From Escherichia coli (GTDB lineage: Bacteria > Pseudomonadota > Gammaproteobacteria > Enterobacterales > Enterobacteriaceae): a stretch of 64,000 bases of DNA. The stretch's first letter is position 1; each line of letters begins with the position of its first letter. The position numbers and the translations under genes are program-made. A model generated the notes under the pieces. It saw only the letters and a list, made by a program, of their open reading frames with translations, was not told where the DNA came from and searched no databases. The DNA is taken from the NCBI RefSeq assembly GCF_003334385.1, contig NZ_QOWN01000004.1. The stretch is one strand, 5' to 3'. Of this stretch, positions 3,328 through 43,751 are shown piece after piece.

Positions 3328-3434
3328 ATGCCTGATGCCGATTCGTAGGCCGGATAAGGCGCTCGCGCCGCATCCGGCGGTGGTGCGCTGAAGCCTGATG
3401 CGACGCTTACCGCGTCTTATCATGCCTACTGGGA
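3328..3434. repeat. REP/BIME element
   Basis: gcctgatgcgacgc / ggccggataaggcg / gccgcatccggc motifs typical of E. coli REP palindromic units. Confidence 0.8.
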
Positions 3435-9565: not shown

Positions 9566-9690
9566 CTTAGCCTGATATAGTGTGCGTAGGCCGGATAAGG
9601 CGTTCACGCCGCATCCGGCATTTGAGCATAGTGCCTGATGCGACGCTTGATGCGTCTTATCAGGCCTACAGGTGCACCGCATCCGGCAAA
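9566..9690. repeat. REP/BIME element (two or more palindromic units)
   Basis: gcctgatatag...taggccggataaggcg...gccgcatccggca...gcctgatgcgacgc...tcttatcaggcctac between mpl and yjgA. Confidence 0.8.
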
Positions 9691-10360: not shown

Positions 10361-11713
10361 ATGGCACTTGCAATGAAAGTAATCTCTCAAGTTGAAGCGC
10401 AGCGCAAGATTCTGGAAGAAGCAGTTTCCACTGCGCTGGAGTTGGCCTCAGGCAAATCGGACGGTGCGGAAGTTGCCGTCAGCAAGACCACCGGCATTAG
10501 CGTAAGCACGCGTTATGGTGAAGTGGAGAATGTTGAATTCAATAGCGATGGCGCGCTGGGGATCACTGTTTATCACCAGAACCGCAAAGGTAGCGCATCA
10601 TCCACCGATTTAAGCCCGCAGGCCATTGCCCGTACTGTACAGGCGGCGCTGGATATTGCCCGTTATACCTCGCCAGATCCCTGTGCCGGCGTGGCAGACA
10701 AAGAGCTGCTGGCCTTTGACGCACCAGATCTCGACTTGTTCCACCCTGCGGAAGTTTCCCCGGATGAAGCCATTGAACTGGCGGCCCGCGCAGAACAGGC
10801 GGCATTGCAGGCGGACAAACGCATCACCAATACCGAAGGTGGCAGCTTTAACAGCCACTACGGTGTCAAAGTTTTTGGCAACAGCCACGGCATGTTGCAG
10901 GGTTACTGCTCAACGCGTCATTCGCTCTCCAGCTGTGTAATTGCCGAAGAAAATGGCGATATGGAGCGTGATTACGCCTACACCATTGGTCGTGCGATGA
11001 GCGATCTGCAAACGCCAGAGTGGGTTGGGGCCGACTGTGCTCGCCGTACTTTATCGCGCCTGTCACCGCGTAAACTCTCCACCATGAAAGCGCCGGTCAT
11101 TTTTGCCAATGAAGTGGCAACCGGGCTTTTTGGCCATCTGGTGGGGGCGATAGCGGGTGGATCGGTTTACCGTAAATCCACCTTCCTGCTGGATTCGCTG
11201 GGTAAACAAATTCTGCCGGACTGGCTGACCATTGAAGAGCATCCGCATCTGCTGAAAGGGCTGGCATCGACGCCATTTGACAGCGAAGGTGTGCGCACCG
11301 AGCGTCGCGATATTATTAAAGATGGCATCCTGACTCAGTGGCTGCTGACCAGCTACTCGGCGCGGAAACTGGGGCTGAAAAGCACCGGACATGCGGGCGG
11401 TATTCACAACTGGCGGATTGCCGGACAAGGGCTAAGCTTCGAACAAATGCTCAAAGAGATGGGTACCGGGCTGGTGGTGACGGAGCTGATGGGCCAGGGC
11501 GTGAGTGCCATTACCGGTGATTATTCCCGTGGTGCAGCGGGCTTCTGGGTAGAGAATGGCGAAATTCAGTATCCGGTTAGCGAAATCACCATCGCAGGTA
11601 ATTTAAAAGATATGTGGCGCAATATTGTCACCGTCGGTAACGATATTGAAACACGCAGTAATATACAGTGTGGTTCTGTGCTGTTGCCGGAGATGAAAAT
11701 CGCCGGGCAGTAA
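10361..11713 (+). CDS. pmbA: Metalloprotease PmbA (TldE)
   Basis: 450-aa ORF matching E. coli PmbA. Confidence 0.9.
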
Positions 11714-11892
11714 AAAACTGGCGCGACCTGCCGCGCTATAAACTAAAAAATTACACAAAATCATTCGCACTGCATCGAGACGGAAAGTGAATGAGGGCCG
11801 GGGAGCGTACTCGCAGTACGTGACCCGGGCGAATGAGCGTAGCCGTCGATGAGGCAGTGTGAAGGATGAAGTGTAAATAAAAAAGGAAGTGA

Positions 11893-12282
<390 letters not shown>

Positions 12283-12326
12283 TTCCTCATTTCCCTGTTG
12301 CCTGCACTCAGGTAACAGGGAACTTA

Positions 12327-12791
12327 TCATCGCAAATGATGCACCACCTGATTGCTGCTGCCGCGCCAGATCAGGGAAGGGTCTTTTAAATCCTGCACAA
12401 ATTTGCCGTCGACCAGTACGTTAATCAAATCAACAACCTGCATTTGCGCAGCGTTGAGATCGTCGAGTTTATAGCCTGTCCACACCCAGATGTCTTTATC
12501 CGGACACTCGGCGCGGATGCGTTTTACCAGTTTCAGAATATCCGGCACGTTTTGCGGATGCAGCGGATCGCCGCCGGAGAGGGAAATCCCCTGGCGTTTG
12601 ATACGAGTGTCATTCAGATCGTTAATGATCTGGTCTTCCATTGCTTTGGTAAATGGCTGACCAGAATTTACCCGCCATGTGCTTTTGTTATAGCAACCGG
12701 GGCATTCATGAACACACCCGGAGACAAACAGGGTGCAGCGAGTGCCGGGGCCGTTGACGATGTCGACAGGATAGTACTGATGATAATTCAT
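12327..12791 (-). CDS. nrdG: Anaerobic ribonucleotide reductase activating protein
   Basis: 154-aa ORF, radical-SAM cysteine cluster CVHECPGC; matches NrdG. Confidence 0.9.
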   Translation of the reverse strand: MNYHQYYPVDIVNGPGTRCTLFVSGCVHECPGCYNKSTWRVNSGQPFTKAMEDQIINDLNDTRIKRQGISLSGGDPLHPQNVPDILKLVKRIRAECPDKDIWVWTGYKLDDLNAAQMQVVDLINVLVDGKFVQDLKDPSLIWRGSSNQVVHHLR

Positions 12792-19764: not shown

Positions 19765-19857
19765 GTTGCCAGCAGGTATTATATCGCCATAAATGCTACG
19801 AATATTATTGGATTCTCCTTATTATTTGCGGCGCTTTTTTCACTTACCGGAGGTTAT

Positions 19858-19911
19858 ATGGAACCTGATCCCACGCCTCTCCCTCGACGGAGATTAAAAC
19901 TTTTTCGGTAA
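19858..19911 (+). CDS. mgtL: mgtA leader peptide MgtL
   Basis: 17-codon proline-rich [20 protein letters not shown] inside the mgtA 5' leader. Confidence 0.8.
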
Positions 19912-20051
19912 GCCCGTCTTTTCACGGCGTTACCGGATGCGTAAGGCCGTGACGTTTTAACGTCCCTGCTCAGCTTTATTACCTTCAGGTAAGGCTTCGC
20001 CACGCCTGAAGACATTTCTGTACTGTTTCAGACAGTGCGGAGGGACTCCTT

Positions 20052-43666: not shown

Positions 43667-43751
43667 GCCGAAGTGGCGAAATCGGTAGACGCAGTTGATT
43701 CAAAATCAACCGTAGAAATACGTGCCGGTTCGAGTCCGGCCTTCGGCACCA
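43667..43751 (+). tRNA. leuX: tRNA-Leu (anticodon CAA)
   Basis: 85-nt sequence gccgaagtggcgaaatcggtagac...ggttcgagtccggccttcggcacca with anticodon loop ttgattCAAaatcaa and encoded CCA. Confidence 0.95.

Follow-up and report, generated by a model that had tools for sequence, protein, structure and literature searches.

The DNA analysed here, called the window, is a stretch of 64,000 nucleotides from the Escherichia coli chromosome with the gene order mpl-yjgA-pmbA(tldE)-cybC-nrdG-nrdD. The pmbA (tldE) gene (10361..11713) and cybC, the gene for cytochrome b562 (11896..12282), are both located on the + strand, and the end of pmbA at 11713 and the start of cybC at 11896 leave a spacer of 182 nt between them. 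In the window cybC is intact, with a Shine-Dalgarno sequence around 11884-11889; past this gene lie the ends of the convergent nrdDG genes. Right after the pmbA stop codon lies a small GC hairpin (11721..11736, + strand; GCGCGACCTGCCGCGC), which is conserved across genera and is not part of the repeat described below. That repeat occupies the A/T-rich stretch between the small hairpin and the cybC ribosome-binding site. Elsewhere in the window, Rfam models identify REP/BIME sequences (naRNA4) at 3348-3426, 9589-9666 (in the mpl-yjgA spacer), 36495-36570, and 36591-36666, as well as Ysr276, an antisense RNA family from Yersinia, at 37500-37694 (175 bits). A magnesium riboswitch (Magnesium-II, 19843-19958) and a tRNA (43667-43748) were, like Ysr276, found above the gathering score.

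The feature first noticed in the spacer was a central stem-loop (11798..11828, + strand), in which CCGGGGAGCGTACT and AGTACGTGACCCGG enclose the loop CGC. A repeat search returns it as an inverted repeat of 14 nt (11798-11811/11815-11828) with 79% complementarity and a 3-nt loop. The same search recovers two exact direct repeats, the left GAATGAG at 11789..11795 and the right GAATGAG at 11831..11837, both read on the + strand. The original prediction had described this nested inverted repeat between direct GAATGAG repeats and placed it at 11786-11838; the string that it quoted is exact to the letter and spans 11789-11837 within that interval. The structured and symmetric character attributed to it is also confirmed by folding, as the 53-nt stretch reaches -24.5 kcal/mol against -14.7 +/- 2.5 for shuffled sequences (z -3.9), none of the 200 shuffles being as good. 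The core is therefore real, but its coordinates cover only the middle third of a palindrome of 124 nt. This palindrome has been delimited by consensus alignment, covariance model, and fold as a complete ERIC/IRU element, running from terminal TA to terminal TA (11752..11875, + strand).

The two terminal arms of the element pair with each other. The left arm (11752..11776, + strand) consists of TA and CACAAAATCATTCGCACTGCATC, and the right arm (11851..11875, + strand), located 8-9 nt 5' of the cybC Shine-Dalgarno sequence, consists of GAGGCAGTGTGAAGGATGAAGTG and TA. The repeat search reports them as an inverted repeat of 26 nt (11751-11776 and 11851-11876) with 77% complementarity. The ends read TA-CAC...GTG-TA (11752-11756 and 11871-11875), that is, terminal inverted repeats with TA at both ends. 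Positions 11755-11880 as a whole form one long hairpin, with a folding energy of -58.2 kcal/mol (z -7.7).

ERIC (enterobacterial repetitive intergenic consensus, also known as IRU or RU-1) is a non-autonomous MITE, or miniature inverted-repeat transposable element. The ERIC/IRU/RU-1 sequences of E. coli and Salmonella are reportedly the subject of work by Sharples and Lloyd in 1990, Hulton et al. in 1991, and Wilson and Sharp in 2006. Published accounts describe a MITE of ~127 bp with inverted termini and terminal TA (PMC2229807, PMC3184786, PMC10969869). The reference used here was the published 127-nt E. coli ERIC (RU-1) consensus of Wilson & Sharp 2006, as quoted in Delihas 2007 (PMC2759123); the + strand of the element corresponds to its reverse complement as printed there. 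The alignment is collinear and includes positions 3-125 of the 127, with about 67-68% identity. Its score of 47 compares with 15.1 +/- 2.3 in 2000 shuffles (maximum 29) and with 14.5 +/- 2.2 for random segments of the window. The length of 124 nt from TA to TA is close to the ~127 bp expected of an ERIC. The arms flanking the core (11752-11785 and 11839-11875) also align with ERIC copies, and the ERIC identity of the whole element stands. Both GAATGAG heptamers align over internal-loop segments of the consensus that flank the central stem, the left one over GAGTGAA and the right one over GAGCGAA. One of the differences between heptamer and consensus is a paired change from G-C to A-U at alignment columns 51/94. 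As read from the sequence, the flanking direct repeats are inherited ERIC architecture, which by chance forms an exact 7-mer in the window copy.

The element is also a member of a dispersed set. When positions 11745-11885 were compared by BLAST with 5,426 complete E. coli genomes, the orthologous copy was recovered together with a median of 3 places per genome. The dispersed copies match nearly the whole query at 69-79% identity and are found in unrelated spacers, namely queA-acpH, hsdM-hsdR, puuR-puuC, and rhlB-gppA. With the consensus as the query, the median rises to 13 places per E. coli genome (range 2-22). The multiple alignment of the dispersed E. coli copies gives a consensus with the hallmarks of ERIC. 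The window copy has 76-77% identity to its queA-acpH and hsdM-hsdR counterparts, and these in turn have 83-84% identity to the ERIC consensus; the window copy itself, with about 67%, is the most diverged of the copies compared. The covariance model matches it over positions 1-130 of 130 with 128 bits, the window element itself being in the training set, and the search of the 64-kb window with the model from seven sequences did not return a second ERIC copy. No match to the 21-nt ERIC core motif, which we take to be that of the ERIC2 primer, was found in the window with up to 3 mismatches, the copy being too diverged. Despite the missing motif, the ERIC identity is settled by the alignment over the full length and by the covariance model.

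The window copy shares with the ERIC/IRU/RU-1 sequences of E. coli and Salmonella its length, the imperfect palindrome, the inverted termini bounded by TA, and collinearity over the full length. It also shares the intergenic location within a transcription unit, putative in this case, the dispersal in many copies, and the presence/absence polymorphism. It differs in its unusual divergence, and it belongs to a small group with the termini TACACAAAATCATTC...TTGAAGGATGAAGTGTA, in contrast to the TATACCCAAAATAATTC...TTGAAATATGACGGGTATA of ERIC. The left terminus TACACAAAATCATTC is common to the queA-acpH, hsdM-hsdR, and puuR-puuC copies, and the right terminus TTGAAGGATGAAGTGTA is nearly invariant in the subfamily alignment. 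The central stem of the window copy, with CCGGG/CCCGG and CGTAC/GTACG, has been reached from ERIC through paired changes. On the - strand, an open frame of 97 codons runs through the whole element (11603-11896). An open frame typical of ERIC has been noted in Delihas 2007 (PMC2759123). This antisense frame was considered as a gene and rejected, as it is the usual ERIC open frame and shows no sign of translation or expression. The RefSeq annotation of K-12 MG1655 does not include a repeat feature at the pmbA-cybC locus, and nothing relevant on ERIC with cybC, or on pmbA with cybC, was found in the literature.

The fold is conserved across the family. Among the seven aligned sequences, 17 of the 42 predicted pairs keep pairing with both sides changed. 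In 17 copies from other species, 87.4% of the cells are paired, compared with 77.5% in column shuffles and about 36% in slid controls, in an alignment fitted to the covariance model, which favours structure; double-sided changes were observed at 23 pairs. In the central stem, for example, CGTAC/GTACG and CTTAC/GTAAG replace each other among copies, and at three positions of the 17 copies G-U is the commonest pair. The symmetry on whose conservation in related genomes the original prediction was to be judged is kept through such compensatory changes. What is conserved in this way is the repeat family. For the window copy, folding gives -63.8 kcal/mol with the sense RNA and -44.7 with the antisense RNA. 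This strand asymmetry is a property of ERIC as a family and is therefore no evidence of selection at the pmbA-cybC locus.

The region around the spacer (10900-12400) was scanned for transcription signals. No sigma-70-like promoter was detected on either strand, and no terminator on the plus strand; the only terminator-like match is the small GC hairpin at 11721-11736 on the minus strand. In E. coli this hairpin has a T run on the minus strand only. In Pantoea, Atlantibacter, and Franconibacter the same hairpin is followed by a T run and looks like a terminator. The ancestral spacer, deduced from ~110 Enterobacterales species, is 35-70 nt long (about 55) and consists of the hairpin and AATAATAAAAAAGGAAGTGAGCAATG. 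The ERIC hairpin also forms when 231 nt of sequence are folded together, and identical pairing is predicted around the cybC ribosome-binding site in alleles with and without the element. Since the ancestral spacer is only about 55 nt long and no promoter-like site was detected, cybC is most likely read through from pmbA.

Several other explanations have been weighed against the ERIC reading. Termination or attenuation of pmbA transcription ahead of cybC by an intrinsic signal would agree with a long GC-containing hairpin directly 3' of pmbA, and with the clear hairpin and T run present in the same spacer of other genera, e.g., Pantoea and Atlantibacter. On the plus strand, however, the hairpin is followed by AAATAAAAAAGG without a T run (AAATAAAAAA as scored against the original prediction, which had named a terminator among its options), and the plus-strand scan was empty. 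T runs are confined to the minus strand, and no transcript of this strand is expected here, since the convergent nrdDG pair stops past cybC. Moreover, ERIC copies are also found upstream of genes where there is nothing to terminate, e.g., between queA and acpH. A terminator function is accordingly very improbable. An independent small-RNA gene with the hairpin as its body, also among the first suggestions, appears slightly less plausible still. The structure is indeed very stable and non-random, and the spacer is conserved between Escherichia species, but Rfam does not give a match at the locus even at an E-value of 10, nor at gathering thresholds in the scan of the whole window. The scanned region holds neither a promoter-like site nor a plus-strand terminator for such a gene, and the sequence belongs to a dispersed repeat family found in unrelated spacers and is missing at this site from 28% of the E. 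coli records.

The dyad symmetry of the core and its location 60-100 nt 5' of the cybC start codon could also be attributed to a palindromic operator for a dimeric regulator of cybC. The same dyad is present in every ERIC copy whatever its neighbours, so that no protein site is indicated here, and the binding site initially envisaged is not retained. In 28% of the E. coli records and in many genera, cybC is intact and has the same ribosome-binding region without the element, and the reviews do not give any DNA-binding motif for ERIC (PMC2229807). Strand-asymmetric folding and conserved G-U pairs speak for RNA and not for duplex DNA, and an operator is hardly credible. The least credible reading is a REP/BIME-type palindrome or another short E. 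coli repeat, which would account for an intergenic GC-rich palindrome in E. coli but not for the length, the termini, and the full-length alignment, which all fit ERIC, the alignment being decisive; naRNA4, the REP-derived Rfam model, matches four other sites of the window, including 9589-9666, and not the element, even at an E-value of 10, in agreement with the first judgement that this was not a standard REP.

The symmetric element is thus very probably the central hairpin of a diverged ERIC copy (11752-11875), and this reading, with the mechanism proposed below, is the best full explanation. The locus-specific interpretation given originally finds no support in view of the full-length alignment and the dispersed copies. 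The element is of an already known kind, from a repeat family described since 1990-91, and as such is an ordinary find. REP units are GC-rich palindromes of 35-40 nt; REP/BIME (naRNA4) sequences are, like the window element, intergenic, palindromic, repeated, and often co-transcribed, but have another sequence and a much shorter unit and do not align with it. The Correia/NEMIS elements of Neisseria are also MITEs with TA ends that are co-transcribed, form long hairpins, and undergo cleavage by a ribonuclease (PMC10969869). They differ in their unrelated sequence, their host group, their processing by RNase III, and the promoters or IHF sites carried by some copies.

The element is polymorphic in E. 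coli. At this locus it is carried with at least 90% identity by 3,885 of 5,432 records, and the remaining 1,547 (28%) do not have the orthologous copy. The empty allele, present for example in isolate 02A16CRGN003 (NZ_CM151387.1), is 128 bp shorter and shows one identical junction on flanks that are 96% to 99.5% identical to the window. The right junction is clean, with ..GTG-TA joined to AATAAAAAAGG in the filled allele and ..CAT joined to AATAAAAAAGG in the empty one. The left flank differs over 11-15 nt (CAAATCTTCAT when empty, TATAAACTAAAAAAT when filled), and therefore a clean TA target-site duplication is not demonstrable in E. coli. The filled and empty spacers of Pantoea do agree with a TA duplication. 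The possibility that the empty allele is a deletion derivative was also considered, as CAAATCTTCAT weakly resembles the left end of ERIC, CAAAATCATTC. It was judged less likely, since a better alignment was obtained between the empty allele and the empty spacers of Citrobacter and Cedecea-like species, and since this allele retains the hairpin's closing C. In fact, the empty allele found in E. coli is closer to these spacers than the filled allele without its ERIC is.

The same subtype has been found at the same site and in the same orientation in Escherichia albertii, Escherichia sp. E1V33, and E. coli E69. Its presence in E. albertii and Escherichia sp. E1V33 indicates that the insertion predates the divergence of these species. 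The ERIC was acquired before the split of E. coli and E. albertii, with both allele states kept in E. coli. An old polymorphism, recombination, or re-import could each account for the persistence of the two states. In E. albertii the element has 11 differences from E. coli in 124 sites, and the third codon positions of pmbA and cybC have 70 in 295 (Fisher p 4e-4). Outside the ERIC, the spacer is 91.5% identical between the two species and equally conserved, the third codon positions being 76-77% identical. The slow divergence may therefore reflect the locus and not the element. As a whole, the pmbA-cybC spacer evolves more slowly than synonymous sites in this comparison. The fold asymmetry, the G-U pairs, and the slow divergence are signs pointing to a constraint at the RNA level.

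Other variation was observed around the spacer. K-12 MG1655 carries the ERIC together with a 26-bp deletion (GTGAGCAATGCGTAAAAGCCTGTTAG), seen against 11890-11915 of the window, that removes the start codon of cybC. This deletion explains the annotation of cybC as a pseudogene in MG1655, whereas the cybC of the window is intact. In E. coli XH992, a RelB/DinJ-family antitoxin gene, and not nrdG, is located 3' of cybC, which shows that the cybC-nrdG junction is variable as well. A contig of 396 nt labelled Caballeronia mineralivorans (NZ_AEJF01000297.1) is essentially identical to the pmbA-ERIC-cybC spacer of E. coli and almost certainly represents contamination of a Burkholderiales assembly by E. 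coli DNA.

Across species, the spacer was studied in 120 loci obtained by a search with the C-terminus of pmbA, with one genome per species. The synteny of pmbA and cybC holds from Escherichia to Pantoea, Erwinia, and Serratia. In unusually many species the spacer holds an ERIC copy or remnant; these stem from at least four independent lineages, lie at three different sites, and include both orientations (loci L011, L028, L029, L043, L048, L052, L065, L069, L077, L082, L084, L093, L094, L100, L108, L115, and L127). In the ~0.9 Mb of pmbA-centred loci scanned, 17 of the 19 matches of the ERIC model fall in the pmbA-cybC spacer, which is normally about 60 nt long. The independent occupations, at least four, are those of Escherichia, of Cedecea neteri, of Pantoea, and of a group with Salmonella, Citrobacter, Enterobacter, and Phytobacter. 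In Escherichia the ERIC lies 37 nt after the pmbA stop codon. In Cedecea neteri it is found 39 nt after the stop, belongs to a near-consensus subtype, and has empty relatives. In four Pantoea-type genomes it lies 56 nt after the stop and downstream of a clear terminator. In Salmonella diarizonae, Phytobacter, Kosakonia sp. S29, and Enterobacter asburiae, the ERIC abuts the stop codon and has the opposite orientation.

Deleted and expanded variants occur at the stop-codon site. The Citrobacter freundii group (L010, L045, L126, L108, L048) has a 43-nt mini-ERIC within the first ~45 nt after the stop, in which both termini (TACCCGTCATACTTCAAGCTG...GAATTATTGAGGGTAT) are kept and the centre is deleted. 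Enterobacter asburiae (L028) has at the same site an ERIC with an internal insertion of ~70 nt, itself palindromic. Palindrome-induced deletions and insertions of roughly 70 bp in ERIC have reportedly been described by Sharp and Leach in 1996 and by Sharp in 1997. Such variants are thus seen in orthologous spacers of the Citrobacter freundii group and Enterobacter asburiae, whereas the window copy is of full length, with neither deletion nor insertion.

The repeated occupancy suggests a hotspot of ERIC targeting or retention, on the basis of few events (at least four) and of pmbA-centred loci only. Throughout Enterobacterales, the spacer could be a preferred site for the landing or retention of ERIC, and, if selection is involved, its hairpin could have been co-opted repeatedly as an intercistronic RNA structure that sets the expression of cybC relative to pmbA. 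This proposal is considered rather unlikely. If it were true, with selection acting and not target preference alone, ERIC would have replaced the ancestral GC hairpin or terminator in some lineages.

As for its activity, the ERIC copy of the window would be transcribed as an intercistronic part of the pmbA-cybC message. Its RNA is predicted to fold as a self-contained hairpin of 124 nt, which would leave the cybC ribosome-binding site as it is in the empty strains. The ERICs of Yersinia are transcribed together with the genes beside them and, depending on their orientation, change the stability of the upstream mRNA via RNase E (PMC2229807, PMC3184786, PMC10969869). The Yersinia work is that of De Gregorio et al. 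2005, as summarised in PMC2229807 and PMC3184786. By analogy, the most likely activity of the window copy may be a modest effect on the processing or stability of the flanking mRNA segments. With the same ERIC identity, it could equally be a nearly neutral passenger. The Yersinia elements are similar in belonging to the same repeat family and in being located between co-oriented genes, near the upstream stop codon and the downstream ribosome-binding site, an arrangement for which co-transcription and effects dependent on RNase E have been described. They differ in that an orientation-dependent effect on mRNA has been reported for them.

For annotation, these results mean that the content of the pmbA-cybC spacer is to be called an ERIC copy, for which RefSeq has no annotation even in K-12 MG1655, and not a candidate small RNA, terminator, or operator. 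In addition, complete E. coli genomes provide a natural pair of filled and empty spacers, in about 72% and 28% of them, respectively, with an intact cybC located 3'. This pair is a convenient E. coli system for asking whether an ERIC hairpin affects the stability or translation of neighbouring mRNA, so far shown only in Yersinia. That one short spacer has been occupied repeatedly, in several genera, gives a modest but genuine clue to the target choice or retention of ERIC.
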